DNA of 64,000 nt from an uncultured Verrucomicrobiota bacterium (GTDB lineage Bacteria > Verrucomicrobiota > Kiritimatiellia > RFP12 > UBA1067): contig CAMZDY010000001.1 of assembly GCA_947305585.1 (NCBI GenBank), positions 17,599-81,598 of the forward strand, given 5' to 3'. A program made the translations under genes and the position numbers. The notes under the pieces were generated by a model. It saw nothing but the letters and a program-made list of their open reading frames with translations, was not told the origin of the DNA and did not search any database. Below, one piece after another: positions 1,393 through 31,023 of this stretch; within the stretch, counting starts at the first letter, position 1, and each line of letters starts with the position of its first letter.

Positions 1393-1652
1393 ATCACGCC
1401 CTCCTCGATGAGTTGCAAAGTGTAGTCATCGATAACCTCGGCCTCCCGCCGGGCTGCCGACTCTTGCGCGCCGACGTACGCCGCGTACTGCGTTTCGGAC
1501 ATTATCGCCGATTCGCCGCACCACACCGTGACGCCATCCCGCTCGACCGCCTCGACCTTGCGCGTGACGCGCACCATCTTGCCTTTCAGCGCTTCGACGC
1601 GCGAGGGCTTCATGTTCCACTCCGCCAGCTTGAATTCGGCTTGATAATTCAT
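1389..1652 (-). CDS. Hypothetical 87-aa protein translationally coupled to the DGR reverse transcriptase; possible DGR accessory protein
   Basis: Start MNYQAEFK... sits at 1650-1652 and overlaps the RT stop (1649-1651). No recognisable domain. Confidence 0.35.
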   Translation of the reverse strand: MNYQAEFKLAEWNMKPSRVEALKGKMVRVTRKVEAVERDGVTVWCGESAIMSETQYAAYVGAQESAARREAEVIDDYTLQLIEEGVI

Positions 1653-2779: not shown

Positions 2780-2927
2780 CTCCTCTTGCCTTCCTATGGG
2801 CTCGCGCGCTTTGTGGCTTTTAGCCCTACTTGCACGCTCCTTCCTCCGCTTTCGCGGATTGTCGCCCGATTTTCCGGGGTTGCCCCCGCGCGGAAATGGC
2901 AAGATATTAGTTTGAATTGATTATTCC

Positions 2928-3059
2928 ATAGGAATGCGAAGCGCCAATGTTCCAGTTCGCGTTCGAGGGGGCGTTGTTCAAGTTCGAGGCAAAGAGGCCG
3001 GCCGTGATGCCGTTCGTGACATTGCCGCCGCAGTTGAGCGCACGCACGCCAGAGGCGAA
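2928..3059 (-). repeat. DGR template repeat (TR), 132 bp, Asn(AAC)-rich
   Basis: Identical to 3184-3315 except at 14 positions, all of them A on the minus (coding) strand. Translates as ...NCGGNVTNGITAGLFASNLNNAPSNANWNIG... Confidence 0.85.
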
Positions 3060-3144
3060 AGCGGAACACCCGCCAAAACTTCTCACCAATCCCTTGTATT
3101 CATCTGTTTTTCTCCTTTTGTTTACTTCAAAATCTTTTAGCTCT

Positions 3145-3166
3145 CTAGGGGGTTAGCACCCCCTAG
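3145..3166 (-). promoter_or_regulatory. GC-rich hairpin (CTAGGGGG-ttagca-CCCCCTAG) just 3' of the VR; candidate DGR target-recognition hairpin
   Basis: 8-bp perfect G/C stem, 6-nt loop. Sits between the target gene stop (3172-3174) and the TR-proximal spacer. Confidence 0.5.
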
Positions 3167-3171
3167 GACCC

Positions 3172-4854
3172 CTAGAAGGCATGATAGGAAGGCGAAGCGC
3201 CAACGCTCCAGTACGCGTCCGAGGGGGCGCTGCACAAGTTCGAGGCAAAGAGGCCGGCCGTGAAGCCGTTCGGGACAGAGCCGCCGCAGGAGAGCGCACG
3301 CACGCCAGAGGCGAACCATGCTGCGTCGCAGAAATTGGTGGACGACGACCCGCCCGCGACACTAGGCAGCATCGCCACCAGATGGTCGAAGTGCATGTGC
3401 GTGATATAGACGCCAGACCCGCTCGTAGGCGACAGCGCATCCGTCTCGATGTACTTGCCGGCATAGTCGTCGTTGTCGCTTGACAGCCACACCGCCGTCT
3501 TGGAACCATCAATCATCGAGGGCGTGAGCTTGACGAGAATCTGCCCGTTGTAGATGGTTGCGCCCACAGGTCGCCGCCACCGGTGGCCCCAGAGATTTTC
3601 CATATTGAGGAACTTGACGCCGGTGGCGACATTCTGCGAGCCGTCGAAGTACGCGCCCCAGAACGCCCCCTTGTCTTTCATTGAGCCGCAATTGATCTGC
3701 AGGCTTGACGCGCCGCTCACGTAAGTACCGCCGATAGCCGCTTGAGAATCAAGCGTGCGGGTCAGAAGCGGGAAGAGGAGCCGGATCATCATCTCGTCGG
3801 CCCAGGTGGTGGGCATCCAGTTGGCGCCGTTGTTGGTGCCGTAGGAAAGCTCCTGCGCTTGCGTGGTATTGTTGCTCGGCTTCGCGCCGGTAGCCATCGA
3901 GCGCAGCACGCTATTGACGACCGCGCCCTCGAAGAGCGGCCAGCCGCAGAAATCGGCGAAGGTGCCGTCGCTCTTCATGTGCGTCCAGCAGAACCAGTCT
4001 TCGGTTTTGCGTACGTTCGAGAATCGCACCTCCACGGTGGAGCCCGAACGGTGGATATGGCAGAAAATAGGCTTGACGATGTTCATCGCGTTGCCTTGAT
4101 ACGCGGTATTCGCGACATCGCTCGCCGTACCGTCCAGCTTTTCCGCCAGGTTGTCGGGATTGAGGTAGTAGTCGATCTCGCCGCCGAAGGTGAGCATGGC
4201 GGGCTTGAAATTCTCCTCGACCCAACTCTTCCATGATCCCCAATTGAGCGCCGGGGTGGATAGCGAGAAATCCATATAGATGGGGTTGAAGTCCTCGCTG
4301 TCCTCGATGTAGGTGATGCAGGTGGCCGGGTTTGTGTCCAGCTCGTCGAGCGCGTAGCCGAAAGTCCACACCGGCGTCGCCGCGAAGCAATTGTCGAGCG
4401 ATTCGTTGTAGAAGCCGCTCGTCGCATACGGGAAGGCGCGGTAGCGGCTGGACACGGTGCCGAGCGTGTCGAGGTATGGCGCGTTGAGGTATTGGTTGCG
4501 CACCGTCGAAGTGACGACCGTGCGGGCGTTGGCGTCGGTGGGCGACGCGGGATATTCGCCGTCGTCGCGCGCCATGATGACGGTGCGAGACCAGAACGCG
4601 GCCGCGACGCCGTAGATGGTGACGTCCGCCGGATCGTGCCATTTGAGGTTCACGCCGCCCGATACCACCTCCGCGATGTGGTACTTGACGGGATTGATGG
4701 GTGTAGCCTGCTGCTTGAGCGCGGCGACATCCGTCTTGATTTGGGTGACATCTGCCGCGACGCCCTGAAGGGTCGTTTCCTGTGCGACGCCCGTAAGGTC
4801 GGACGGGGTGGTGACTTGGGCGGTGGGTGAAAGCTGGTTGATTGGCGTTGGCAT
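3172..4854 (-). CDS. DGR target protein, 560 aa; phage receptor-binding / tail-fibre protein whose C-terminus is the VR
   Basis: The VR occupies the extreme C-terminus (...FCDAAWFASGVRALSCGGSVPNGFTAGLFASNLCSAPSDAYWSVGASPSYHAF). RBS AGGAG before the ATG. Lies next to the tail-fibre gene. Confidence 0.75.
   Translation of the reverse strand: MPTPINQLSPTAQVTTPSDLTGVAQETTLQGVAADVTQIKTDVAALKQQATPINPVKYHIAEVVSGGVNLKWHDPADVTIYGVAAAFWSRTVIMARDDGEYPASPTDANARTVVTSTVRNQYLNAPYLDTLGTVSSRYRAFPYATSGFYNESLDNCFAATPVWTFGYALDELDTNPATCITYIEDSEDFNPIYMDFSLSTPALNWGSWKSWVEENFKPAMLTFGGEIDYYLNPDNLAEKLDGTASDVANTAYQGNAMNIVKPIFCHIHRSGSTVEVRFSNVRKTEDWFCWTHMKSDGTFADFCGWPLFEGAVVNSVLRSMATGAKPSNNTTQAQELSYGTNNGANWMPTTWADEMMIRLLFPLLTRTLDSQAAIGGTYVSGASSLQINCGSMKDKGAFWGAYFDGSQNVATGVKFLNMENLWGHRWRRPVGATIYNGQILVKLTPSMIDGSKTAVWLSSDNDDYAGKYIETDALSPTSGSGVYITHMHFDHLVAMLPSVAGGSSSTNFCDAAWFASGVRALSCGGSVPNGFTAGLFASNLCSAPSDAYWSVGASPSYHAF
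3184..3315 (-). repeat. DGR variable repeat (VR), 132 bp, encoding the last ~44 aa of the target protein
   Basis: 14 mismatches to the TR, all at TR-adenine positions (24 adenines in the TR; 14 differ). The 3' ends of TR and VR diverge completely, as expected for an IMH-type boundary. Confidence 0.85.
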
Positions 4855-17199: not shown

Positions 17200-17747
17200 T
17201 TCCCCTCCTCCTGTCCAGTGCTCGCGTCTTCGGGCTTCGTGTATAGCATCTGTCCCCACACAAAGTCACAGTGACCATAGATTACAATCTTACAACATGG
17301 ACACTTCGAACATCTCGGATAGTTTTTACAGAACGCCATGAATCGCTCTGTTTGCTCCTTCGCTGTTCCCACGTCGCAGTTGCGCGGCGGCGCGGAGAGG
17401 GCGGCTTTCGCCTTCTTCTGGCATTCCTCTATGTGGTCGGCATATTCCGCTATGCGTTCTGCGTCGGTCAGACCATCTTCCATCGCGGCTTCATCTGTCG
17501 CGTCACAAAGGAGCACATACTCCAGCGCCTCGCGCATCTTCTGTACATTGCCAAGTTCCCGCTTGTAGGCGGCTACGAGGCGGTCGGCGAGATGCAACAT
17601 ATCGCACACAAGTGGCGAAAGGGCGTATGCATCCTCCGGCAATCCTTGATTCTGTGCGAGAATCTCCGCGATGATGTCGTGTATCGTTTCGGGGTCGTGG
17701 ACGCTCTGCACACTGCCGCATTCTGGTTTAGTGTAAAAACCGCTCAT
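17196..17747 (-). CDS. Phage Cys-rich protein, 183 aa; C-terminal CxxC/CxC cluster suggests a zinc-binding module
   Basis: C-terminus reads CKNYPRCSKCPCCKIVIYGHC. Confidence 0.4.
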   Translation of the reverse strand: MSGFYTKPECGSVQSVHDPETIHDIIAEILAQNQGLPEDAYALSPLVCDMLHLADRLVAAYKRELGNVQKMREALEYVLLCDATDEAAMEDGLTDAERIAEYADHIEECQKKAKAALSAPPRNCDVGTAKEQTERFMAFCKNYPRCSKCPCCKIVIYGHCDFVWGQMLYTKPEDASTGQEEGK

Positions 17748-17995: not shown

Positions 17996-18016
17996 TTCCC
18001 CTCCTCCTGTTCTGTG

Positions 18017-18036
18017 CTCGCGCATTCATGCGCGAG
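18017..18036 (-). promoter_or_regulatory. Perfect 20-bp palindrome CTCGCGCAT-tc-ATGCGCGAG, copy 1, about 20 nt upstream of the RBS of the 83-aa gene
   Basis: Seen directly. A second copy lies at 20910-20929. Confidence 0.4.
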
Positions 18037-18043
18037 GTTTGCG

Positions 18044-20155: not shown

Positions 20156-20477
20156 GCCGCACCTCCTTCGCTCTGTACCGCCTGGATGGCTGCCGCTCGC
20201 GCGTCCACCGCCCTTGATTGACCGTCCGCCACCGCCTGCCACTCTTGACGATTTCCCGCGCCGCATACGCCGCGCCTGCCCTCGCCACCAAAAAACGCCC
20301 CGCGCACACCGTGCCCTTCCGCGCGGCGCTCCACACCGCATTGATCGAGCACCGCGCCACCTTCGCCGCTTCCCACTTGTCCACGCCCGTCACCTCGTTG
20401 CCGGTGTCCAGGTCCAGCATCACGAACTGCTGCACCGCGCGCGGTCGCCTCGGAAACGCATACTCACTTAGCCTCAT
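20148..20477 (-). CDS. Phage hypothetical protein, 109 aa
   Basis: Intact ORF. Confidence 0.35.
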   Translation of the reverse strand: MRLSEYAFPRRPRAVQQFVMLDLDTGNEVTGVDKWEAAKVARCSINAVWSAARKGTVCAGRFLVARAGAAYAAREIVKSGRRWRTVNQGRWTRERQPSRRYRAKEVRHG

Positions 20478-20637
20478 CTTTCACCTCCTCCGCTCCGTCG
20501 CCCACCAGCGCTCGCACCAGCCTCAGCCCGTGCGCGTGCACCAGCGGTGTATCATGCTCCTTCTCCAACTGGTAATCCACTTCCATCACCAGCTTCTTCC
20601 CCTCGCGCGGCCTGATCCGTACGATAATCTTCATTTC
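20464..20637 (-). CDS. Phage micro-protein, about 56 aa (MKIIVRIRPREGKKLVMEVDYQ...)
   Basis: Hand-translated; overlaps both neighbours. Confidence 0.25.
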   Translation of the reverse strand, partial: EMKIIVRIRPREGKKLVMEVDYQLEKEHDTPLVHAHGLRLVRALVGDGAEEVKDEAK

Positions 20638-20888
20638 GCCTCCTCCACCCGCTCGAACTCGCCGGTGTAAATCTCGCGGTCCGCATCGAAATGATCCTTG
20701 AAAAACTTCCGCGTCACCCGGTAGCGCCGGTAGCCGGTAATACCGAACTCATCCTTGAATCGTACCAGCACCTCCTCCCCGATCTCGATCCCCCTCAAGA
20801 GCGTCGGCCGGGTCGTCGTAAACCGCCGCCCCTTCCTGGAGAGCCCGCTATTATCCCCCACCGTAATCTTCTTGATTTTGTTTTCCAT
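20631..20888 (-). CDS. Phage hypothetical protein, 85 aa
   Basis: Start MENKIKKITV preceded by AAGGAGG. Confidence 0.4.
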   Translation of the reverse strand: MENKIKKITVGDNSGLSRKGRRFTTTRPTLLRGIEIGEEVLVRFKDEFGITGYRRYRVTRKFFKDHFDADREIYTGEFERVEEAK

Positions 20889-20889
20889 C

Positions 20890-21078
20890 TCACACCTCCT
20901 TGTCCAATGCCCGCGCATTCATGCGCGAGATTCTTACTTGCTCGATACACGCCTGCGCCTGCCGCCGGATGCTGCGCCCTTCCTCTCGCGCCACCTCGCG
21001 CAGAAATTCCAGCTGCTCCGGATTCGCTGGCACCAGCACCAGTTTGTCGCTTTCGCCTGCTATCTTCGGTCGTCCCAT
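20890..21078 (-). CDS. Ribbon-helix-helix (CopG/Arc-like) regulator, 62 aa (MGRPKIAGESDKLVLVPANPEQLEFLREVAREEGRS...)
   Basis: MGRPK start, one beta-strand then two helices. Two operator copies lie immediately upstream. Confidence 0.45.
   Translation of the reverse strand: MGRPKIAGESDKLVLVPANPEQLEFLREVAREEGRSIRRQAQACIEQVRISRMNARALDKEV
20910..20929 (-). promoter_or_regulatory. Palindrome copy 2 (CCGCGCAT-tc-ATGCGCGAG), inside the 3' end of the RHH gene and about 25 nt upstream of the next ATG
   Basis: Seen directly: a 16-bp perfect core, 19 of 20 matching copy 1. Confidence 0.4.
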
Positions 21079-21092
21079 AATGTTTAGACACT
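21079..21092 (-). promoter_or_regulatory. Operator copy 1 (AATGTTTAGACACT), abutting the ATG of the RHH gene
   Basis: One of three copies sharing the AATGTTTAGACA(C/T)T core. Confidence 0.45.
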
Positions 21093-21115
21093 CTTAGGGT
21101 ATTAGAAAATTTTGC

Positions 21116-21269
21116 TTATGCAAAAATGTGCAAATGTTTAGACACTTTTTTGCCAGCAAAAAGTCTGGTGTAGTGTTTCAAAGCCTCTTCGATGGTGACA
21201 CCCATCGCCTTGGCCCGTTCGGTTATGAACTGCTGCGTCTCCTTCGAGAGTTTAGTGAAGTCGATCACG
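21116..21269 (-). CDS. Possible small RHH protein, about 50 aa, from a GTG start (VIDFTKLSKETQQFITERAKAMGVTIEEALKHY...)
   Basis: RHH-like pattern. The GTG is preceded by AAGGAAAGG. Overlaps the 3' end of the 92-aa gene. Confidence 0.25.
21133..21146 (-). promoter_or_regulatory. Operator copy 2 (AATGTTTAGACACT)
   Basis: 54 nt from copy 1; it flanks a TTGCA...TAATAC promoter-like stretch. Confidence 0.45.
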
Positions 21270-21543
21270 CTGCACCGCCTTTCCTTTTGTTGACAATACT
21301 TAAATGGACCATCTCCAGGGCGGCTTTGTACGCCGCCTTGTACTGGCGAGCGATCTCGCCGTTCTTCATGATCCCGCATCCGATGGCCTTTGACGTGATT
21401 CCGTCAATCACCATCTGCGTAATCGTCTCTCCTGTCTTGTCGCACACCAGCACCGCCAGCGCGCGCACTTCCGGATCGACGTAGCCACCCACCAACGTTT
21501 TCGTTGGCTTGTGCTTTCCGGACCTTCCGTTTTTCTCTCTCAT
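21265..21543 (-). CDS. RHH-type repressor candidate, 92 aa (KTLVGGYVDPEVRALAVLVCDKTGETITQMVIDGI...)
   Basis: Its own promoter carries operator copy 3 between the -35 and -10. Transcribed divergently from the plus-strand moron genes. Confidence 0.45.
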   Translation of the reverse strand: MREKNGRSGKHKPTKTLVGGYVDPEVRALAVLVCDKTGETITQMVIDGITSKAIGCGIMKNGEIARQYKAAYKAALEMVHLSIVNKRKGGAA

Positions 21544-21571
21544 GATGCCTTTCCTTGGTAGATACGCGAAT

Positions 21572-21601
21572 ATTATATCAAATGTTTAGACATTTTGTCA
21601 A
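21572..21601 (-). promoter_or_regulatory. Consensus sigma70 promoter TTGACA-18-TATAAT whose spacer is the AAATGTTTAGACATTT operator (copy 3, 21580-21595)
   Basis: Seen directly; 28 nt upstream of the 92-aa gene's ATG. Confidence 0.55.
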
Positions 21602-21625
21602 GGGGGTAAATGATATTTTTTCAAT

Positions 21626-21664
21626 ATCGCTCTTGCCCCCACTCCCAAAATATGCTATAATACT
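21626..21664 (+). promoter_or_regulatory. Promoter repeat A (TTGCCC-17-TGcTATAAT) driving plus-strand moron gene 1
   Basis: 39-nt element, 34 of 39 identical to 22399-22437. Confidence 0.5.
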
Positions 21665-21704
21665 GTGTGTTCTCCGCAAAACTACTACCAACCACAACTA
21701 ACCT

Positions 21705-22277
21705 ATGATTACTTGCCCCAATTGCCAGCACCGCTTTCCGATCGACCGCGCCGAAACTGTCGAGCATCCTTGGTTAATACTGTCACAACCATTTTTCGTC
21801 GCAACCAATCTGCGCATCATAACCAAGGATCGCATTATCAATCTGGCCGATATTGAAGATTGCTTTGTGAAATCCAGATATACGCCAACGTACATCACCC
21901 TACGCCTTACCGATTGGCTTTTCTCCCTTATTGCTCTCCCTGCGTTAATACTCCATTTCGTGCATTTCAAGGTTTTGGCGATCATTCTTTCAATCCTGGG
22001 CTTGCTTGGTTATTTTGTCTTGGTTGGCAAGTATTTGCTTCCGATTTTGGAATACCATTATAAAACACACACGCTGTATATAAAGCTTAAGGATGGTCCA
22101 ATCCTTTCCATTCCTGTTTCCGATCCGTATATTGCTCCCAGTATAATGCGCTGGACTAGGATTTCAGAAAAGGCTTCGGCACATGGCGTAATGGCACAGC
22201 CGGATCCTTTTTACGATTTAATCATCAAGCCCGAAGTTAGAAACTACAAACCGGAGCATCCCGAAGATTGGGAATAG
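21705..22277 (+). CDS. Moron protein 1, 190 aa: N-terminal CPNC zinc-ribbon-like motif, two adjacent transmembrane helices, beta-rich flanks (possibly a bacterial PH-like domain)
   Basis: Lower GC than its surroundings. Has its own promoter and a hairpin. It and the next gene are the only plus-strand genes in the prophage. Confidence 0.55.
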   Translation: MITCPNCQHRFPIDRAETVEHPWLILSQPFFVATNLRIITKDRIINLADIEDCFVKSRYTPTYITLRLTDWLFSLIALPALILHFVHFKVLAIILSILGLLGYFVLVGKYLLPILEYHYKTHTLYIKLKDGPILSIPVSDPYIAPSIMRWTRISEKASAHGVMAQPDPFYDLIIKPEVRNYKPEHPEDWE

Positions 22278-22290
22278 CCCCGGTTCTGCC

Positions 22291-22309
22291 GCGCCCCGTC
22301 CCGGGGCGC
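22291..22309 (+). terminator. GC hairpin GCGCCCC-gtccc-GGGGCGC after moron gene 1; no clear U-tract
   Basis: Part of a 39-nt repeat (22275-22313) duplicated at 23051-23095. Confidence 0.35.
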
Positions 22310-22398
22310 ACTTTGGCCGCAGAATTTCCCATTTTCCCTATTGACTTTTGATGGGGAAATATGATATCATATGAGGCAGAAACACCCAAAGTGGGTGT

Positions 22399-22437
22399 AT
22401 CGCTCTTGCCCCTACCACGAAAATGTGCTATAATACT
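22399..22437 (+). promoter_or_regulatory. Promoter repeat B (TTGCCC-17-TGcTATAAT) driving moron gene 2; the ATG lies about 10 nt after the -10, so the mRNA is near-leaderless
   Basis: Duplicate of repeat A. Confidence 0.5.
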
Positions 22438-22444
22438 TAGCAAT

Positions 22445-23053
22445 ATGTGCAAAAACTTCGTCACCAAAGCAAAGTCGTTCCTTGCCCGCTCTCGCGCCTG
22501 GATAGTTCGTATCGCCGTCAATCTTGTCAAAGCGGGCGCATCTTGCCTCAGTAATCTTTTATTCGTGGTGCTCGGCATAATCGGTATCGTTTCTACAGCC
22601 TTGTGGTGGCCACCATGTTCACCTATCTTAATCGCTACCCATCTTTTGTCTGGCACTGAGCAAAAGTGGTATGTCGAACCGTCGGACGAGTCTGACCAAT
22701 ATCTCATTTACACCCACACTGATAATAACCCTGAAAATACCGGCGTTGTTATTCTTGCAACTAAAGGAGATGACCAATACTATTACGGTATTGCTGCAAT
22801 TGCCTCGATCGCACAGCCGCTTGATCCATCCTGGCCGTTTATATCCGTATCGTTTGATGATAATGAAACACACTTAAAGCGTGTAATTATTGACCCCAAC
22901 CGACGCACACTTCTCTTGCCCGAGCTCTACGGCCCAGATATTTATCGCGTATCTGAAATAACCTTTGTATATCGGTCAACCACCGGTGAAGAAGTGTCTA
23001 CGACTATTGATCTGTCTGGTGTAAAACCTAAATTCGATCGGCTGCTTAAATAG
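22445..23053 (+). CDS. Moron protein 2, 202 aa from MCKNFVTKAK: N-terminal membrane anchor plus a roughly 150-aa exported or soluble domain
   Basis: Internal ATG placed directly after promoter B. One transmembrane helix (LLFVVLGIIGIVSTALWW). Low GC. Confidence 0.5.
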   Translation: MCKNFVTKAKSFLARSRAWIVRIAVNLVKAGASCLSNLLFVVLGIIGIVSTALWWPPCSPILIATHLLSGTEQKWYVEPSDESDQYLIYTHTDNNPENTGVVILATKGDDQYYYGIAAIASIAQPLDPSWPFISVSFDDNETHLKRVIIDPNRRTLLLPELYGPDIYRVSEITFVYRSTTGEEVSTTIDLSGVKPKFDRLLK

Positions 23054-23072
23054 CCCTCTCCCCGGTTCTGCC

Positions 23073-23092
23073 GCGCCCCGTCCCCGGGGCGC
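23073..23092 (+). terminator. Second copy of the GC hairpin (GCGCCCCG-tccc-CGGGGCGC), shared between moron gene 2 and the convergent toxin gene
   Basis: Abuts the toxin stop codon at 23095-23097. Confidence 0.35.
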
Positions 23093-23094
23093 AC

Positions 23095-23529
23095 TCACGC
23101 CGTCACCGCGCGCTTCACCGCTTCCGGCACCCTGCGACTCGCCACGATTCCCCGCGCTATCTGGTCCATCACCGCCGCCGGCATATCCTGGCACTTCACC
23201 GTGCGCTTGCGCTCCAGCATCTCCATAAACTCTGCTTTAGTCTTCTGGAATACGGTGTTGCAATTCACGTACGATTCTTTCGTCTGCCCGTCGAACGTCG
23301 GCAGATTTGGTATCGTCACCAGCGTCTTCGGATCGGCGCCCCATAGCTCGATCAGTTTCCGGTTCGTCGCACCTTGCGATGTCACCAGCACCAGATACAC
23401 CGTCGGATCCTTGCGCGGCTCGCTGTTGGCCACCACCAGGAAATGCAGCTCCTGGTTCGGCAACTCCGGCAGCACGGCCTTCATCATCGTGCCGCGCCGC
23501 AGAAAGAGATTAAGCTCCCATTCTTTCAC
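23095..23529 (-). CDS. Toxin partner of the Panacea antitoxin, 144 aa (or 130 aa from MMKAVL); MazF/PemK-like fold suspected
   Basis: 4-nt overlap with the upstream Panacea gene. The pattern HFLVVANSEPRK..PTVYLVLVTSQ...ESYVNCNTVFQKTKAEFMEML loosely parallels MazF core strands. Confidence 0.4.
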   Translation of the reverse strand: MKEWELNLFLRRGTMMKAVLPELPNQELHFLVVANSEPRKDPTVYLVLVTSQGATNRKLIELWGADPKTLVTIPNLPTFDGQTKESYVNCNTVFQKTKAEFMEMLERKRTVKCQDMPAAVMDQIARGIVASRRVPEAVKRAVTA

Positions 23530-24095
23530 AGCGCAGCCACCCAGGCGGTTTCTTCATAGGCGGCCTTGGCCGTCTTCACCCACTCCGGATCTGCGCTGCA
23601 ATATTCAACGCCCTTCGACGGGCTCAAAAAGAAATCCTCGAACTTCATCCTGCACTTGCTCCTGCCGGAATTGCGCGCCCGCCGCCACTCCGGGAACCGG
23701 TGCGTATAGGCGATTATGTCCGGATGCTTGCGATAAACCTCCACCGCCACATCCAGCGACTCCTTGTCCGCCTCCGACAACTGCTCGAACTGGTCGTTCC
23801 CGATCGCCACCAGGTTGGCTGCATTCTTCGTTTCCAGCGGCACCACTGTCAAGTATTTGCTGGAATATTTCGCCTCTTCTTTCGCCTCGCCCTTGAGTAT
23901 TCGCTCGGCATATACCGGTAGCGGCCCGTACTGCATTGCATTGTAGCAATCGCCGGTAATTGTTATTCCGCTCTTCCGGAGACTATCCCTGTCCGCCAGG
24001 TACAGTAGTTTGTACGCATGTAGCCGGTTTAAGCCGCCCACACCGCACTTGCCTGCCAGATACGCCACCGCCTGTACTATCTTCTGGTAGTTCAT
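23526..24095 (-). CDS. Panacea-domain (DUF4065, GepA/SocA-like) antitoxin, 189 aa
   Basis: Hallmark motif LNRLHAYKLLYLADRDSLRKSGITITGDCYNAMQYGPLPVYAERI. Confidence 0.6.
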   Translation of the reverse strand: MNYQKIVQAVAYLAGKCGVGGLNRLHAYKLLYLADRDSLRKSGITITGDCYNAMQYGPLPVYAERILKGEAKEEAKYSSKYLTVVPLETKNAANLVAIGNDQFEQLSEADKESLDVAVEVYRKHPDIIAYTHRFPEWRRARNSGRSKCRMKFEDFFLSPSKGVEYCSADPEWVKTAKAAYEETAWVAAL

Positions 24096-24163
24096 TCTTG
24101 TCTCTTTTTGGATTTTGTGCGTATATTATACCATATTTCGCCCAGCGTTGTCAAGCATTTTCT

Positions 24164-25354
24164 CTACGCCCTGATCCTCCCCACCACGATCGTCGGCACG
24201 TCATCCGTCACCGCGTACGGATCCGCGTAGTAGTATTCCACCGTCTCGCGCCGGTCGCCGGACAGCGCCACCGCGTACTTCGGCCCCATCTCGTGGTACA
24301 CCGTGTCGATACACAGCTTCCGCAACTCGTACACGCCCTTGCCCCACTCCTCCGGACTAAGCCCGCACTCCCGCCGCAGCAGATAGTTCAGCTCGTCGTG
24401 CACGTACCGCCCGGCCGGAATGAACACCTCGCCCTTCTCGCACATGTTCGGCTTGTACTTGAGCATCAGTTCCTGAATCGCCGGGGCGAATTTCCACCGC
24501 ACCACCCGGCCGCTCGATCCTTCCGTCTTGTGCGGCGTGTACACCAGCCACATCGCCCCGTCCTTCATTACGAAGTTCTCGCCCGTCAGCCGGATCACGT
24601 CGTTCGGCCGCATCGCAAACTGGTACACCATCGTCGCGAACGCGAACAGCCGCTGGTTCCTTTCCTCCTGGAGCCCGGTATACCACATGTCAATCTTGTC
24701 CTTCAGCTCTTGCCCCAGCCGCACATAACGCCGCGACTTCGCCGTCCCGCCCAGATCCGGCATCTCCGGCCGCACCACCTTGATTCCCATGTCCTCGTAG
24801 TATTCGTCCGTCCACTTCGCCGTCAGCCGCTGCAGCGCCGCGAGATACGTCTTGACCGTATCTCCCGCCACGCCCCGCGCCTGCAGCCGGTCCAGCACTC
24901 CCCTCAGCGTTCTCCGGTGCATGAGCTTGCGCACGCTGTCGTTTTCGCTCAACCCCGCCGCCACCATCACGTTCCGCGTCCCCAGCTGCGCCGACCGCAC
25001 GCTCTTCAGACTCGGCTTCTCCTTCCCGATCCGCTTCCACCGCCTCTCCACGATCTGGTCGTACGCCGCCATCATCTCGCCGATCGTCGGCACCTTCTTC
25101 TGCCCCTCGTTCTCGTCCCCGCCTAACTCCTGCTGCATCTCGTTGTACCAGCTCAAGTACTCCGCCTCCAGGATCGGCGTCGGCCGCAAACTCCGCGTCC
25201 CCGCTTTCCATCCCTTGACCGCGATCTCCGGATCGAGCTCGCACGTCTTGCTCACCCGCTCCCCGTTTATCATAGCCTGGAAGCGAATGCTCGCCTTGCC
25301 GCCACTGCCCAGCCGAAGCGTCACCCCCGGCCGAAGCGTCACATAGTTTTTCAT
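24164..25354 (-). CDS. int: Tyrosine recombinase / phage integrase, about 396 aa
   Basis: C-terminal catalytic region (…GVYELRKLCIDTVYHEMGPKYAVALSGDRRETVEYYY). Last phage gene before the host junction. Start MKNYVTL preceded by AGGAGAAA. Confidence 0.75.
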   Translation of the reverse strand: MKNYVTLRPGVTLRLGSGGKASIRFQAMINGERVSKTCELDPEIAVKGWKAGTRSLRPTPILEAEYLSWYNEMQQELGGDENEGQKKVPTIGEMMAAYDQIVERRWKRIGKEKPSLKSVRSAQLGTRNVMVAAGLSENDSVRKLMHRRTLRGVLDRLQARGVAGDTVKTYLAALQRLTAKWTDEYYEDMGIKVVRPEMPDLGGTAKSRRYVRLGQELKDKIDMWYTGLQEERNQRLFAFATMVYQFAMRPNDVIRLTGENFVMKDGAMWLVYTPHKTEGSSGRVVRWKFAPAIQELMLKYKPNMCEKGEVFIPAGRYVHDELNYLLRRECGLSPEEWGKGVYELRKLCIDTVYHEMGPKYAVALSGDRRETVEYYYADPYAVTDDVPTIVVGRIRA

Positions 25355-25388
25355 CTCGTTTCTCCTTGGTAGGTTAAGCACCACCTCG

Positions 25389-25463
25389 TTGGGTAATCGT
25401 TGGGTAATTTTGGGTAATTCTACCCCCATTTCCCGACATTTGCCGACACCTTCTTTGGGTAAT
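25389..25463 (-). repeat. Four TTGGGTAAT direct repeats between the int promoter and the int ATG; candidate integrase arm-type sites
   Basis: Copies at 25389-25397, 25400-25408, 25410-25418 and 25455-25463. Confidence 0.5.
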
Positions 25464-25472
25464 GCTACTTAT

Positions 25473-25502
25473 ACTATATCATTTCCTACCGTAAAATGTC
25501 AA
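25473..25502 (-). promoter_or_regulatory. Putative int promoter TTGACA-18-TATAGT (minus strand)
   Basis: Contains the 18-nt element shared with the capsid-operon promoter. Confidence 0.4.
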
Positions 25503-25641
25503 CCCCCAATCATATTTTATTTTTCCCACATGTTCCCCACCCCATCCCGTCCAGATGAGCTACAGGCCCTTAATTGCCGTTCGGATGTATATTATATCAT
25601 AATCCGCGCCGAAAAGTCAAGCCTTTTTCTGACTAATTTCG

Positions 25642-27936
25642 TCACGGATCCAGATAGAAGCGCCAAGCGCGAATACGGCCAGACTTGCTGTCTTGGCGGG
25701 GGGTATAGCGGAAGCCAGCCACCTCCACCTCGGCACCCATGTCGATGACCAGCCAGTGCGGAGGCTTGGGCAGAGCCTTGCTCCAACGCGAATGGTAGAA
25801 ATTGCTGATCTGGCCGTCGATGGCATTTTCGGCCGCACCATCCTCGAGCCCATCCTCCTCGCTGGACACGGAAACGAAATCCCACGAATCATGCGGCACG
25901 CTGCGGCCCTTGGAATCCAGAATCTCGAACTCGGCCACCGCCGCCACGTTCTTGCCGCTCCAGTCGCTATCCATCACGAATGCGAAGCGCCGCGCTTTCT
26001 TGGGGCTTGCCAAACGAACGTCGCGCGCATCGGAGGAATCCGGGAATTCGCCCTTGAGCTCTGGCGTGGCAGGCGGCGTAAACGGCTGCGACTCGCGCTT
26101 GGCGGCCACGATGAAATCGCAATCCGGGTGCATTTCGTCGAGGACGGGTTTATCCACGAAAGTAAGTCCCTCCGTCGGCACATTGCCCGCAAAGTCGAAC
26201 ACCACGAACTCGTTTTCACCCTGTTTGAGCCAACACCCGGGCACAAACATCGTCTGGGTGGGGCCGATGCCCCAGAAACGGCCGAGACCCTGTCCATTAA
26301 CCCACACGAATCCCTTCTGCCAACCGCGCACGAGGAGCCAGGTGTCGGCGGTCGAGGGAAAGTCCACCTTGAAACGTTTGAAAAGACAGGGCTCGTTCTT
26401 CAATGTGGACGAATAGACGATGGAATCAAGGAATTCCCGGGTGGCCGGGGCGGGATAGGCGTTCCAACCTTTGACTGGGGCACCATCGAGCGTGACCGGC
26501 GGCAGGAGCCCCTTCTCGGCATGGTTGATAGCCGTACCGAAGTGATAGCGACCCATGTTGCACACGACTATCGAGAGCATCTTGGTGCCGACCGGAATCT
26601 TGACTCCGCGATTGGCGAATCGCCGGCTCAAAAAGCCCACGTGCTTGCCATCCGCGAAGACCGCCGCCTGGTCGCGCAGGTTGGGCGTTTTGAGGATGCC
26701 GCCCTTGCCGTCCAGCTTGGCGGCGTAGACCATCGCGCCGTAGCCGAGCCCCAGCATCTCCACGGGCAACGGATCTTCCATGAGTTCGCGGTTGGCGGGC
26801 CGGGGGCTCCGGGGCGCGCCGATTTCCGCCTTGGCGGAGCTCTTTAGCGCCTGCACGGGCAAAGGACCGGGAACGGACGGCAATCCAGCCAATTCGGCAG
26901 GCGTCATGTACTTCTTCATGAGCTCCCGGAGCGCAAAAAACTTGGGCGTGGCGCCGCCCTGCTCGTCGATGGGCGCTTCGTAGTCGTAGCTGGAGGTAAT
27001 GGGGGCAAAAGGCGAGTTCTGTCCCGCCCAAACGTCAAAACTGGTGCCGCCATGCGCCATGTAGAGCGAGAAGGACCCGCCTACCGACAGCATGTAGTCG
27101 ATGTCGTCGATCATCTTCTGAACGGGTTTGGTGTGGTGGCGCTGTCCCCAAGTATCGTACCAGGCGGGATAATATTCGCCGCACATCAAAGGTCCGCGCG
27201 GTTGCACTGCGCGAAGTTTCTCGAAGGCATTCGTGGGGTTGGTGCCGAAATTGACCACCTTGACCGTTTCGGGAATGACACCTTTGGTGAGATGATAGGC
27301 GGGGTTGCAGGTGAAGATCGGCACCTCGAACCCGGCTTCGCGCAGCACTTTGTAGATGGCGCGGATATATTCGCCGTCATTGCCGAAGAATCCGTACTCG
27401 TTCTCGTCCTGCACCATCAGGATGGGACCGCCGCGCGTAACCTGAAGATCCTTGAGCTCGTCCGCCACGCGGGTCAGATATTCCTTGACCGGCCCCATGA
27501 AAGCGGGATCGCGCGTACGCAGCTTCACTTTGTCCGCACCTTTGTCGAGAAGCCACCAGGGGAAACCGCCGAACTCCCATTCGGCGCAAGCGTAGGGGCC
27601 GGGACGGAGAATCACCCAAAGTCCTTCTTCTTGGGCCAGGCGACAGAACTCGGCCACGTCACGATTGCCGGAAAAGTCGAACCGGCCGCGCTCGGGCTGA
27701 TGGTAATTCCAGAAAAGATACGCGCAGACGGTATTTAGACCCATCGCCTTGCACATCTGGAGGCGCTGCCGCCAATATGGACGCGGCACGCGGGCGAAAT
27801 GCATCTCTCCGCAACGGATCTGGAACATCTCGCCGTCGAGAATGAATGCGTCGCGTTCGGACGAAACCTCGAACGTGTGTTTGACGGGGGCGATAGCGGA
27901 AGCGAAAACAATAGCGGACATGGCGATCAGGTTCAT
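25642..27936 (-). CDS. Secreted GH35 beta-galactosidase with a C-terminal discoidin-like domain, 764 aa
   Basis: Signal peptide and GH35 core (RPGPYACAEWEFGGFPWWL). Confidence 0.85.
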   Translation of the reverse strand: MNLIAMSAIVFASAIAPVKHTFEVSSERDAFILDGEMFQIRCGEMHFARVPRPYWRQRLQMCKAMGLNTVCAYLFWNYHQPERGRFDFSGNRDVAEFCRLAQEEGLWVILRPGPYACAEWEFGGFPWWLLDKGADKVKLRTRDPAFMGPVKEYLTRVADELKDLQVTRGGPILMVQDENEYGFFGNDGEYIRAIYKVLREAGFEVPIFTCNPAYHLTKGVIPETVKVVNFGTNPTNAFEKLRAVQPRGPLMCGEYYPAWYDTWGQRHHTKPVQKMIDDIDYMLSVGGSFSLYMAHGGTSFDVWAGQNSPFAPITSSYDYEAPIDEQGGATPKFFALRELMKKYMTPAELAGLPSVPGPLPVQALKSSAKAEIGAPRSPRPANRELMEDPLPVEMLGLGYGAMVYAAKLDGKGGILKTPNLRDQAAVFADGKHVGFLSRRFANRGVKIPVGTKMLSIVVCNMGRYHFGTAINHAEKGLLPPVTLDGAPVKGWNAYPAPATREFLDSIVYSSTLKNEPCLFKRFKVDFPSTADTWLLVRGWQKGFVWVNGQGLGRFWGIGPTQTMFVPGCWLKQGENEFVVFDFAGNVPTEGLTFVDKPVLDEMHPDCDFIVAAKRESQPFTPPATPELKGEFPDSSDARDVRLASPKKARRFAFVMDSDWSGKNVAAVAEFEILDSKGRSVPHDSWDFVSVSSEEDGLEDGAAENAIDGQISNFYHSRWSKALPKPPHWLVIDMGAEVEVAGFRYTPRQDSKSGRIRAWRFYLDP

Positions 27937-27961
27937 GCGGTACTCCTCTTTCTGGTTCGGT

Positions 27962-28660
27962 TCAAAGAAATCTGGCGATCAGCGCGATAAGCGCGGTGTC
28001 GGTGCGGAGAATCCGGGGGCCGAGCGAATAGCGCAAAAAGCCAGCCGCCTCCAACGCCTCCACCTCCCCTTCCGTCCAGCCGCCTTCGGGGCCTATCGCG
28101 AAAACGACATTCGCACCGGAATTACGCGGAGGAAGCGGCGCTGGATTTCCATAGGGATGGGCCACGAGTTTGAGACCGTCCATCCGCTCCAGCTTCGGCA
28201 ACAGGCGACGGAAACTGCGTTCAACCGAAATCGTCGGCAGAATGCTTGTGCCGGATTGCTGGAGCCCTTCGACAAGAAACGGCCGATAATTCTCCGGTTT
28301 CAAGATGGTGGCGCCCCAAAAATCCTTCTCCACCTTGTTGGCCCCAATAAGGAAAAGTCGACGCAACCCAAGCGCGGCAAGTTGAGGCAATATGCGCTTG
28401 AACACACGGGGACGAGGTGGTGCAAGAACGAGATCGAACCATGGTTCCGGGCCGGAGTCGCCAGTCTCTACCGCCACCGCAACCTCGCCGTCTTCAATGG
28501 CAAGAATTTTGCCCGCACCGATTTTGCCGTCAATCACACCCACCTTGAGCACCTGTCCCGCCTCGCCATGCAACACCTCAAGAATATGCCGTGCGCGAGC
28601 GTCGTAGATTTTCGCCACGCCATCCTTGATTTCTTCCGGCTCGAACAAAATGCGGTTCAT
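27962..28660 (-). CDS. rsmE: 16S rRNA (uracil1498-N3)-methyltransferase RsmE
   Basis: RsmE-like PUA and SPOUT domain pattern. Its start overlaps the mutS stop. Confidence 0.7.
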   Translation of the reverse strand: MNRILFEPEEIKDGVAKIYDARARHILEVLHGEAGQVLKVGVIDGKIGAGKILAIEDGEVAVAVETGDSGPEPWFDLVLAPPRPRVFKRILPQLAALGLRRLFLIGANKVEKDFWGATILKPENYRPFLVEGLQQSGTSILPTISVERSFRRLLPKLERMDGLKLVAHPYGNPAPLPPRNSGANVVFAIGPEGGWTEGEVEALEAAGFLRYSLGPRILRTDTALIALIARFL

Positions 28661-31023
28661 CAGAAAAACGTCATCTGCCCCGGCAGTTCCGAGAGTTTCC
28701 GGCGGGGACGGCGCACCACGCGCGACTGTCCCGACACGTCGATTTCGTTGGCCTCTAAGTTGGATAGAATCTCGCCGGCACGCGCCACCACCTCTTGCGG
28801 GAGCCCGGCCATCGCACCCACGTTAATGCCGAAGCTTTTCTCCGCCACGCCGGGAACGATCCGGCGGAGAAACACCACGCGACCCTGTTCTTCCTTTACG
28901 CGCACGGTGTAGTTCTTTATGCCGGGGAAAAGGTCGGTGAGATCGGTAAGCTCGTGATAATGGGTGGCAAAGAGCGTCTTGGCCTTGCTCTCGGTACGTC
29001 CGTAAAGATACTCCGCCACCGACCAGGCTATGGAAATGCCGTCGAACGTACTGGTGCCGCGCCCGATCTCGTCCAGCACGATAAGCGACTTTCGCGTGGC
29101 GTTGTTGAGGATATTGGCCGTTTCCTGCATCTCCACGAGGAACGTGGAGCGTCCGCGCGAAAGATCGTCCCCCGCGCCTATGCGGGTGAATACGCGATCC
29201 AAAACTCCGAGCCGCATGCAGGAAGCCGGCACGAAACTTCCAATCTGCGCCATGATGGCAATGGTGGCCACCTGACGGATGTAGGTGGACTTGCCGGCCA
29301 TGTTGGGGCCGGTAATAAGCATGATCTGGTTGTCCGAACAATCGAGAAACGTGGAGTTCGGCACAAACGGTTCGGCATCGGGCAACTGCTCGATGATAGG
29401 ATGGCGACCGTCCTTGATCTCGAGAATGTCGCTTGAGTCGATCACTGGACGCACGTAACCGGCCGCGAGCGCGCGATCGGACAAACTCAAGATCGCATCC
29501 AGCTCGCCCAACTTCAAGGCCGTCTCCTGAATGGCGGCAGTGCGCAGATTCACGGAGTCCGCTATTTCCTTGTAAAGCTGCTGCTCAAGCGCAATGGCCT
29601 TGCCGGTGGCGCCCAGCACCTTTTCTTCGTATTCCCTCAATTCCGGCGTGACAAACCGCTCGCCCGTAATCAACGTCTGCCGGCGCTGATATTCCGGCGG
29701 CGCCAAATGGGCCAAGGACTTGGTGATCTCGATCACAAAACCGAAATTCTTGACATACTTCACCTTGAGCGACTTTATGCCGGTACGCTCCTGTTCCTTC
29801 GTCTGATATTCCGCGAGCCAGGAATGGCCGTCGCGGGCAATGGCGCGAAGTTCGTCCAGTTCGGCACTGTAGCCCGACGCGATAAACCCGCCTTCCGACA
29901 ACATTACGGCGGGTTCGGGGGCGATGGCATGGTCTATGAGATCCACAATGCCGGGCTCTCCGGTCAAAACATCGCCAACAAGCGGATTTATTGCGGGAAT
30001 CGGCCGGAGCGACTCCGCCAACGCCTTGAGGTCGCGAGGATTGGCGCGGCCCGCAGAAACCTTGGCTACAAGCCGGTCGAGATCGCGCACGCCGGAGAGA
30101 AGTTTGCGCAAAGTCCCCAGCGCCGCGCGGTCTCCCATAAAACGCTCTACCTTGTCCAGCCGGGCGTTGATGGCTTCCGGCAAGGCAAGAGGATGCAGGA
30201 TCCAATTCCGGATCGTTCGCGCACCCATCGGAGTTTTGGTGGCGTCAAGTACGCCAAGAAGCGATGCCTCTTTCGCCACCTCGCCTCCCGGCACCAGCTG
30301 GAGATGGCGACAGGTGGAAGCATCCAACACCAGCGCGTCGGACGCTGATACTACCCGTATCTTGCGGATATGGGAGATGGAGTGATGAAGCGTAACACCT
30401 ACATAATGGAGCAACGCCCCGGCCGCGCAAACGAGATCGGGATCTTCAAGACCGAATCCATCGAGACTTGCCACCTTAAAATGGCGCAACAACGTTTCCC
30501 TGGCCATGTCCAACGCGAAAGTCCAGGCGTTCTCTTCAGTCTTCGCCAGCGTCTCCATCGGCGAATAGCGCTCCACCGCACCGCCTTTCTCGCACAAAAA
30601 TTCGCCGGTCGCGAGATCCAGGAGCGCAATGCCCGAACCATATACCGACGCTAAATAGTTGGAACGGGTTTCGTCCATGATACCGTCTTCGGTGACGGTA
30701 CCGGGCGTGACGATGCGAGTCACTTCGCGCCGGACGAGCCCTTTGGCGAGTTTGGGATCCTCCACCTGGTCGCACAGGGCGGCCGTCTTGCCGGCGCGAA
30801 TAAGTTTGGAAAGATATCCGTTGAGCGCATGATATGGCACACCGCACATTGGCATGTCGCCGCGGTGCGTGAGCGTAGCCCCCAGAATGGGCGAGGCCAC
30901 AATGGCATCCTCGCCAAACATTTCGTAGAAATCGCCCAACCGGAACATGACGATCGCACCCGGCGGAACTTCGCGCTTGATCGCGAAGTACTGGCGCATC
31001 ATTGGGGTGAGCTCGGCCGCCAT
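28660..31023 (-). CDS. mutS: DNA mismatch repair protein MutS
   Basis: Walker A (GPNMAGKST) and the conserved MutS domain order. Confidence 0.9.
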   Translation of the reverse strand: MAAELTPMMRQYFAIKREVPPGAIVMFRLGDFYEMFGEDAIVASPILGATLTHRGDMPMCGVPYHALNGYLSKLIRAGKTAALCDQVEDPKLAKGLVRREVTRIVTPGTVTEDGIMDETRSNYLASVYGSGIALLDLATGEFLCEKGGAVERYSPMETLAKTEENAWTFALDMARETLLRHFKVASLDGFGLEDPDLVCAAGALLHYVGVTLHHSISHIRKIRVVSASDALVLDASTCRHLQLVPGGEVAKEASLLGVLDATKTPMGARTIRNWILHPLALPEAINARLDKVERFMGDRAALGTLRKLLSGVRDLDRLVAKVSAGRANPRDLKALAESLRPIPAINPLVGDVLTGEPGIVDLIDHAIAPEPAVMLSEGGFIASGYSAELDELRAIARDGHSWLAEYQTKEQERTGIKSLKVKYVKNFGFVIEITKSLAHLAPPEYQRRQTLITGERFVTPELREYEEKVLGATGKAIALEQQLYKEIADSVNLRTAAIQETALKLGELDAILSLSDRALAAGYVRPVIDSSDILEIKDGRHPIIEQLPDAEPFVPNSTFLDCSDNQIMLITGPNMAGKSTYIRQVATIAIMAQIGSFVPASCMRLGVLDRVFTRIGAGDDLSRGRSTFLVEMQETANILNNATRKSLIVLDEIGRGTSTFDGISIAWSVAEYLYGRTESKAKTLFATHYHELTDLTDLFPGIKNYTVRVKEEQGRVVFLRRIVPGVAEKSFGINVGAMAGLPQEVVARAGEILSNLEANEIDVSGQSRVVRRPRRKLSELPGQMTFF

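Follow-up and report, generated by a model that had tools for sequence, protein, structure and literature searches.

A promoter-ORF-hairpin slot with differing cargo in a prophage of an uncultured Kiritimatiellia bacterium and its relatives

We analysed a stretch of 64,000 nucleotides (nt) from an uncultured Kiritimatiellia bacterium (contig CAMZDY010000001.1), hereafter called the window, with attention to two adjacent open reading frames (ORFs), gene 1 and gene 2, that lie near one end of its prophage. The prophage extends from window position 1 to about 25569 and encodes a DnaB-type helicase, the large terminase, tail and tail-fibre proteins, a reverse transcriptase and an integrase. PHROG and Pfam matches place the helicase, terminase, tail, reverse transcriptase and integrase genes all on the minus strand, which fits with the two ORFs being the sole plus-strand genes in 25 kb. 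On related contigs, separately made gene calls likewise give the gene at this site, here called the cargo, as the only one on the opposite strand. An earlier note on this DNA had positioned the two genes inside a prophage, between the immunity switch and a toxin-antitoxin/integrase module. Profile matches agree with that placement, the toxin-antitoxin system being of Panacea type and the other neighbour being the early-promoter/immunity region. Each gene is preceded by one copy of a promoter module and followed by one copy of a hairpin module. Gene lengths are in amino acids (aa), and both genes are taken from the ORF list.

21625..21681, plus strand: promoter module copy 1, with the -35 element TTGCCC at 21633-21638 and the extended -10 element TGCTATAAT at 21653-21661
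21705..22277, plus strand: gene 1, 190 aa
22278..22319, plus strand: hairpin module copy 1, with stem arms 22291-22298 and 22302-22309 and the loop TCC
22398..22454, plus strand: promoter module copy 2, with the -35 element TTGCCC at 22406-22411 and TGCTATAAT at 22426-22434
22445..23053, plus strand: gene 2, 202 aa
23060..23102, unstranded: hairpin module copy 2, with stem arms 23073-23080 and 23085-23092 and the loop TCCC

The duplicated promoter and hairpin elements that the earlier note had described around the two plus-strand genes are real and non-random, and we find them to be 57 nt and ~42 nt long, respectively. A repeat search aligned 21625-21681 with 22398-22454 at 77% identity over 57 nt, around the core TCGCTCTTGCCCC-N7-AAAATrTGCTATAATACT. 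Both copies were recovered in a promoter scan as TTGCCC-17-TATAAT with an upstream TG (10/12 consensus matches), and TGCTATAAT is confined to these two places in the 64-kb window. The hairpin repeats, 22278-22319 and 23060-23102, differ by one extra loop C and by their last few bases. Each forms an 8-bp all-GC stem, GCGCCCCG/CGGGGCGC, with a loop of 3-4 nt. With up to 3 mismatches allowed, the promoter and hairpin motifs each matched the window exactly twice, and 100 shuffles yielded 0 matches. Hairpin copy 1 is a putative terminator of gene 1. Copy 2 lies between gene 2 (plus strand) and the convergent toxin gene (minus strand) and is therefore a putative bidirectional terminator; it is also the putative right-hand homology arm of the slot. 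To judge by these sequence features, the two genes are independent transcription units.

The base composition of the cassettes also sets them apart. Their GC content is 0.43-0.49 across 21600-22950, compared to 0.52-0.68 in the flanks, so the lower GC reported for the pair holds. The GC content at third codon positions is 0.50 in gene 1 and 0.45 in gene 2, compared to 0.71-0.89 in neighbouring phage and host genes, and ranges from 0.45 to 0.56 for cargo.

The same flanks enclose a different gene in closely related elements. Proteins identical to the 92-aa early protein and to the Panacea protein of the window are encoded on about ten other contigs. In L001, L002 and L003, a single opposite-strand gene of 338 codons lies between the 92-aa and Panacea genes. 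Among the ~10 contigs with the identical 92-aa protein, three were displayed and all three carry the 338-aa cargo; the rest were merged because their gene neighbourhoods were largely alike. We read the sequence of L001 and found the same promoter before its 338-aa gene and the same hairpin after it, with a C-to-T change in the hairpin that keeps a G.U pair. BLASTN alignment of the window with L001 delimits the replaced segment:

window 20474-21662: aligned with L001 11070-9882 at 98.6% identity
window 21663-23049: replaced segment, 1387 bp with two genes in the window, 1022 bp with one 338-aa gene in L001
window 23050-30000: aligned with L001 8859-1910 at 97.6% identity

One break point falls two bases past the -10 hexamer, immediately following TATAATA, and the other coincides with the TAG stop (23050). 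Promoter copy 1 is identical in L001 up to TATAATA. A more distant, heteroimmune relative, L006, is 91.7% identical in the early region and 95.5% identical in the integrase, and its 338-aa cargo is 94-95% identical to that of L001. L006 retains the -35 TTG and TGCCATAAT of the cargo promoter with a diverged spacer, and it also keeps the near-leaderless spacing and the hairpin. Over the four promoter copies, the -35 TTG and the extended -10 element are conserved while the spacer varies. The ATG follows TATAAT by exactly 10 nt in three of the four cargo genes (L001, L006 and window cassette 2), gene 1 being the exception; in those three, the 5' UTR would measure just a few bases. The 3' boundary is common to all four: A-TAG, then CCC, then the hairpin module. 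Between L001 and L006, the 338-aa gene has a dN/dS of 0.27, a sign of purifying selection. This value and the homology of the gene 1 N-terminal domain to both repeats of the 338-aa protein, described below, support the cargo ORFs as genuine genes.

These comparisons show a promoter-ORF-hairpin slot whose ORF content differs among near-identical elements and which holds two units in the window. The modular cassette-exchange site suggested in the earlier note was borne out by this survey of related contigs, in which the same promoter and hairpin surround a different gene; because the flanking repeats are present in related elements, the data support an exchange slot and not a local duplication. 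Since the promoter and hairpin are both conserved while the enclosed ORF differs, they would act as expression signals and as short homology arms.

Gene 1 consists of an N-terminal CxxC/His/Cys beta domain (residues 1-70), two membrane helices at about 71-110 and a C-terminal soluble part (111-190), as judged from hydropathy, with a predicted N-in/C-in topology. Its leader of about 43 nt is C/A-rich, and the gene is therefore not leaderless. Over residues 4-70, gene 1 shares 33% identity with the C-terminal repeat of the 338-aa protein (BLASTP E 5e-5), and the alignment conserves C4, C7, H21 and C53. In a shuffle test, the N-terminal domain scored 68 compared to 26.4 +/- 4.6 for shuffled sequences, with none of 2000 shuffles reaching that score; against either repeat of the 338-aa protein it outscored every one of the 2000 shuffles, and the same test found those two repeats to be related to each other. 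In both gene 1 and the 338-aa protein, the N-terminal domain is followed by a hydrophobic segment 45-64 residues long, as would fit two membrane helices. Because the two proteins share the CxxC domain and the two-helix membrane segment, gene 1 is, as far as sequence comparison goes, a shorter and highly divergent member of the resident cargo family. An apparent likeness between the C-terminal tails of the two proteins was dropped, as it was not significant in shuffles.

The earlier description of protein 1 held for its two transmembrane helices, which hydropathy supports, and failed for its zinc ribbon: the protein has one CxxC knuckle with a conserved His and Cys, and with only one such knuckle it is not a canonical zinc ribbon. 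The Pfam Zn_ribbon_4 match is sub-threshold (E 0.008-0.026; 14.9-16.5 bits against a cut-off of 30.3) and covers residues 2-15, which form the first knuckle. For the N-terminal domain of the 338-aa protein, the sole Pfam match listed is a weak one to bPH_3 (PF14470; E 0.27; 12.2 bits against a cut-off of 23). An AlphaFold2 model of gene 1, built from a 3-row alignment, had a pLDDT of 53.6 and was unusable.

Gene 2 has a basic N-terminus (7 K/R and no acidic residues in positions 1-34), a membrane helix at about 35-56 and an acidic C-terminal domain of ~146 aa. The predicted topology is N-in, with the large domain outside the inner membrane. This domain is apparently beta-rich, a secondary structure taken solely from a low-confidence, single-sequence AlphaFold2 model with a pLDDT of 48.7. 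The ATG of gene 2 lies 10 nt past the -10 box, so the gene is near-leaderless, as had been noted before. The public gene call (P0003) instead starts at 22361, upstream of the gene's own promoter, and gives 230 aa; another assembly gives 220 aa. We regard the public call as probably too long, and the ATG at 22445 as the better start because it lies 10 nt after TATAAT and matches the conserved spacing between the -10 element and the ATG. Gene 2 and its upstream promoter region are also found on a 7.4-kb contig of an independent Logan assembly. No homology was detected between gene 2 and the family of gene 1 and the 338-aa protein beyond a hydrophobic helix. The idea that the two genes form a functional pair found no support: each has its own promoter and hairpin, all related elements found carry a distant homologue of gene 1 by itself, and gene 2 shows no homology to that protein.

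That neither protein resembles a characterised family was confirmed with Pfam, PHROGs, PADLOC and NCBIfam, none of which gave a significant match. Neither the full proteins nor their isolated domains matched these family libraries at E values up to 0.1, save for the sub-threshold zinc-ribbon knuckle. When gene 1, gene 2 and the 338-aa cargo were compared with 5.8 billion protein clusters in word-indexed searches, only the queries themselves and one 94% relative came back. For the gene 1 family, we built a HMMER profile from gene 1 and both halves of P0027; a full search of 1.84 billion representatives with this profile retrieved only the input sequences and a spurious tandem-repeat protein, P0028. 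Sequence searches of the PDB gave nothing below E 0.6, and tblastn found no match in 50,697 phage genomes. Exact-protein look-ups for P0001, P0002, P0025, the 396-aa integrase and a 62-aa protein returned no record. The integrase was not found in GTDB genomes, nor the Panacea protein in IMG/VR.

The genes and signals on either side of the slot are as follows.

21265..21543, minus strand: first gene of the early operon, 92 aa (ORF list; no Pfam or PHROG match)
21572..21601, minus strand: early (lytic-direction) promoter TTGACA-18-TATAAT, 12/12 with TG (promoter scan)
23095..24154, minus strand: toxin-antitoxin module with its own promoter (Pfam, promoter scan)
23095-23529, minus strand: candidate toxin ORF, 130-144 aa, weakly PemK-like (E 0.022, sub-threshold), overlapping the antitoxin gene
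23526-24095, minus strand: Panacea/SocA antitoxin (Pfam SocA_Panacea, E 2e-14)
24154-24125, minus strand: toxin-antitoxin promoter TTGACA-18-TATAAT, perfect consensus (promoter scan)
24164..25429, minus strand: tyrosine-type integrase, 396-421 aa (phrog_1, E 7e-8)

The early promoter (21601-21572, minus strand) is back to back with cassette 1 and lies upstream of the 92-aa gene and the remaining early genes. Its spacer contains the palindrome AAATGTttagACATTT at 21580-21595, a putative operator with 6-bp arms that is not significant alone. The 92-aa protein is a probable operator-specific regulator of the early operon; by eye, from its sequence pattern alone, it looks ribbon-helix-helix-like. 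On the other side of the slot, a SocA/Panacea antitoxin gene is followed by a small candidate toxin gene, the arrangement of a type II toxin-antitoxin system. L006 is without this module, and its hairpin abuts the integrase stop codon (...T-A-stop; L006 4500-4560) just as the hairpin in the window abuts the toxin stop codon (...T-A-stop). Because the integrase and toxin stop codons abut the hairpin alike, this arrangement suggests that the toxin-antitoxin module was inserted or deleted at the hairpin-abutting junction. No Rfam match was found in 21000-24200. The prophage end near 25569 is where similarity to L006 stops, and a host GH35 (beta-galactosidase) gene at 25642-27936 adjoins it.

A comparison of L001 6556-18408 with window 1-25569 showed that the end carrying the integrase, toxin-antitoxin module, cargo and regulator is about 98% identical and occupies the same integration site by the GH35 gene. 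This lysogeny end is joined to a full-size prophage in the window and to a ~12-kb element in L001, where the main gene encodes a 1608-aa MuF/ART polyvalent protein. The L001 element could be a prophage that has decayed or else something satellite-like that shares the lysogeny module.

Two further features of the prophage were observed. An intergenic motif is repeated before at least three early genes on the minus strand, at 18003-18039, about 20896-20930 and 17207-17227. It consists of a hairpin with a 9-bp stem, CTCGCGCAT-ga-ATGCGCGAG, followed by GCACTGGACAGGAGG and then an ATG; the third copy comprises the 3' part alone, and matching sequences also occur in related loci. The prophage also carries a diversity-generating retroelement at 1649-4854, in which all differences between the template and variable repeats (15/15) lie at adenines of the template copy.

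1649-2902, minus strand: reverse transcriptase of the retroelement (phrog_1423, E 3e-68)
2928-3059 and 3184-3315: template repeat and variable repeat, a 132-nt pair
3172-4854, minus strand: gene for the linked tail protein (phrog_5302), with the variable repeat at its 3' end

A 78-nt stretch (22320-22397) that separates hairpin 1 from promoter 2 bears on the origin of the tandem. Read on the minus strand, it contains TTTGGG-18-TATCAT (22390-22361), then 28 nt, then an ATG at 22332-22330, and so is collinear with the real early promoter, in which TTGACA-18-TATAAT is also followed by 28 nt and an ATG. This suggests that 22320-22397 is a decayed early-promoter stub of another related phage, carried in with cassette 2, and that the duplicated unit reaches about 80 nt further upstream of promoter 2. 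Cassette 2 would then derive from a relative of different immunity specificity and include a stub of that phage's early promoter. Its left junction could plausibly have formed by illegitimate joining just after hairpin 1, a step for which support is weak.

Palindromes in or beside the early-promoter spacers differ between the window, L006 and the stub.

window 21580-21595: AAATGT-n4-ACATTT
L006 about 3397-3415: ACAGGT-n7-ACCTGT
stub 22383-22397: CACCCA-n3-TGGGTG

These palindromes, none of them significant alone, accompany different first early genes (92 aa in the window and 77 aa in L006), and the variants would fit with distinct immunity specificities. L006 thus differs from the window in both its first early gene and its spacer palindrome. 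Cargo does not follow this pattern: L001 and L006 share cargo and differ in regulator and spacer palindrome, whereas the window and L001 share the regulator and operator region and differ in cargo. Since cargo varies independently of the early regulator and its operator region, it is not the immunity determinant.

Taken as a whole, the locus is best explained as a hypervariable accessory-gene slot with swapped, putatively lysogen-protecting membrane cargo in temperate phages and integrated elements of an uncultured Kiritimatiellia bacterium, an account that we consider reasonably probable. Cargo would be swapped by homologous recombination in the conserved flanks between co-infecting relatives, and in the window two complete units in tandem would have replaced the usual single 338-aa gene. 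The cargo promoter faces away from the early operon without overlapping the putative operator, and it would be active in the lysogen; the hairpin would stop transcription from both sides. The products of gene 1 and gene 2 would be small inner-membrane proteins, presumably made in the lysogen. Protection of the lysogen against other phages is their most likely role, proposed tentatively by analogy with membrane morons such as HK97 gp15 (PMC3594210) and with prophage membrane defence proteins (PMC6426606). Acting from the periplasm, gene 2 would most plausibly stop DNA entry or interfere with a receptor step, and gene 1 would act from the cytoplasmic side, as a membrane-anchored blocker or as a sensor/effector, with each gene protecting at the envelope on its own. 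A bolder version is doubtful: that gene 1 and the 338-aa protein represent a new, lineage-restricted prophage membrane family, with a CxxC/His/Cys and possibly PH-like domain plus a membrane hairpin, that blocks or aborts superinfection by a mechanism with no relation to known exclusion proteins, and that the promoter, leaderless ATG and TAG-hairpin flanks constitute a portable "expression socket" in which temperate phages of an uncultured PVC-group phylum swap whole ORFs, or stack them in tandem, at precise junctions.

Several points weigh against this account. Superinfection exclusion or abortive infection is tied to the two proteins by their position and membrane location only. Neither protein matched a defence or exclusion family among the PADLOC, PHROG, Pfam and NCBIfam models, and the AlphaFold2 models (pLDDT 53.6 and 48.7) were too poor for fold searches. 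The promoters were scored against a sigma-70-type consensus, the use of which in Kiritimatiellia is an assumption. The hairpins are not followed by a U tract and the terminator scan called neither of them, so terminator function is deduced from position. There is no Shine-Dalgarno sequence in the 43-nt leader of gene 1, which differs there from the other three cargo genes. The stub alignment is weak, with a score of 18.5 compared to 6.7 +/- 5.4 for shuffles, 50 of 2000 of which scored as high or higher (p about 0.025). The flank motifs were absent from IMG/VR and from GTDB species genomes, and in JGI metagenomes they gave two chance matches in unrelated high-GC DNA without the hairpin. Finally, the evidence for the exchange site comes from a few samples, with only three architectures and four alleles of the cargo among them.

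We considered other explanations for the cargo genes. They could be lysogenic-conversion or host-physiology genes that change the envelope, transport or stress tolerance without acting on phages. Many moron products do have non-defence functions (PMC3594210), the main domain of gene 2 is predicted to lie outside the inner membrane, and no defence model was matched; yet no transporter, enzyme or envelope family was matched either. The turnover of cargo amid 98% identical flanks fits an arms race better than housekeeping, and prophage defence genes typically sit, as here, beside a toxin-antitoxin module and the immunity region (PMC6426606), so we regard lysogenic conversion as unlikely. We give still less weight to the possibility that the gene 1/338-aa family controls the phage's own lysis-lysogeny decision, as a membrane-anchored regulator in the position of lambda cI. 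In its favour, the gene and the early promoter stand back to back, and the near-leaderless arrangement is conserved, reminiscent of the leaderless lambda cI mRNA made from PRM. The CxxC domain is of a metal-binding type, and no helix-turn-helix repressor was detected on the cargo strand. Against it, the cargo does not co-vary with the operator region, and the window and L001 cargo are just 33% identical over one domain. Moreover, no DNA-binding domain was detected in the cargo, and the unrelated gene 2 stands behind a copy of the same promoter module.

The remaining alternatives concern how the cassettes move and whether the tandem is genuine. A hairpin after each ORF, a nearby integrase, a hairpin that abuts the integrase stop codon in L006 and junctions precise to the ORF together recall integron-like, site-specific movement, with the hairpins as recombination sites for the adjacent integrase. 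However, integron cassettes are promoterless, whereas each cassette here has its own putative promoter. Integron attC sites have paired core sites and a GTTRRRY motif, and the simple 8-bp GC stem has neither; the integrase itself falls with generic phage integrases (phrog_1). Because the flanking genes are homologous too, the exchange needs nothing beyond ordinary homologous recombination. We therefore rejected the integron gene cassette/attC reading, on the promoter of each ORF and the lack of attC architecture, and consider it highly improbable. The same very low probability attaches to the tandem being an artefact, made of two strain variants mis-assembled from the metagenome, or a local duplication without meaning. 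The contig that holds the window is indeed a metagenome assembly, and only one contig is on record for gene 1. Against this, the two ORFs are unrelated, the promoter copies have diverged to 77% identity, the junction at 22320-22397 is unique sequence, and the same flanks surround other cargo in other samples. The mis-assembly reading was rejected on the unrelated ORFs, the unique junction and the copy of gene 2, with its upstream promoter region, in the independent Logan assembly.

The slot combines traits of several known systems. Morons are phage genes with their own promoter, terminator and deviant GC content, and they include membrane exclusion proteins such as HK97 gp15 (PMC3594210). As the earlier note had surmised, the two cassettes are moron-like, each unit having its own putative promoter, hairpin and deviant composition. 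They also constitute extra DNA between conserved genes (two units compared to one in L001-L003) with a composition unlike that of their neighbours. Like lambdoid morons such as HK97 gene 15, each unit comprises a single ORF of odd composition with a putative sigma-70-type promoter, a downstream hairpin and a predicted small inner-membrane product, the promoter and terminator being recognisable only at the sequence level. Unlike the HK97 moron, the slot lies at the immunity/integrase end and not in the tail operon, its promoter and hairpin are reused around different ORFs, and its products have no sequence similarity to HK97 gp15 or any other moron product.

In T4-like phages, PeSL promoter/stem-loop motifs mediate ORF shuffling (PMC2839356, PMC4122927). 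As in PeSL cassettes, promoter and stem-loop motifs here flank orphan ORFs, mark the break points of replacements and offer short homology for shuffling, and stop and start codons abut the motif. PeSL motifs are compact, with a stem-loop that overlaps or adjoins the promoter, occur in about 50 copies per genome in lytic myoviruses and carry a Shine-Dalgarno sequence (PMC2839356, PMC4122927). In the window, by contrast, the hairpin and promoter are separate modules that come no closer than about 85 nt, with about 95 nt of unrelated sequence between hairpin 22291-22309 and promoter 22406-22434, and there are two copies per module in one slot of a temperate phage with apparently leaderless translation. 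Thus, the orphan ORFs and break points correspond to those of PeSL cassettes, and the compact composite motif and the many copies were not found.

Actinobacteriophages carry prophage-expressed membrane defence genes beside their repressor and integrase genes (PMC6426606). The cargo resembles those of cluster N mycobacteriophages, Gordonia phage CarolAnn and Sbash (PMC6426606), and also lambda rexAB/cI, in lying between the integrase and immunity region, in running opposite to the lytic genes and in encoding lineage-restricted membrane orphans. It has its own putative promoter, as do Sbash 30/31. Unlike the defence genes of CarolAnn and Sbash and rexAB, the cargo shows no homology to them (PADLOC, Pfam and PHROGs were negative) and is arranged as separate units instead of a co-transcribed sensor and effector like RexA/RexB. 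In P2-like phages and P4-like satellites, conserved flanks enclose variable hotspots (PMC9122126), which share with this slot a fixed locus, cargo that differs among near-identical elements and an adjacent toxin-antitoxin system. The slot differs from them in that its cargo resembles no defence system known so far, its conserved flanks include expression signals and its junctions are ORF-precise. The slot is another instance of morons, prophage hotspots and PeSL-type shuffling, with new orphan proteins and no new principle.

Functional tests will be difficult because the host is uncultured. The flanks (CTCTTGCCCC...TGCTATAATA and GGTTCTGCCGCGCCCCGTCCC) provide a handle for harvesting more cargo alleles from raw sequencing data, and both orphan membrane proteins can reasonably be regarded as candidate exclusion factors of a new kind. 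The host belongs to the phylum Kiritimatiellota, in which phage biology is essentially unstudied. If our interpretation holds, its temperate phages would possess a clean natural plug-in slot for fast-changing, lysogen-expressed genes, in which the expression signals double as recombination arms.

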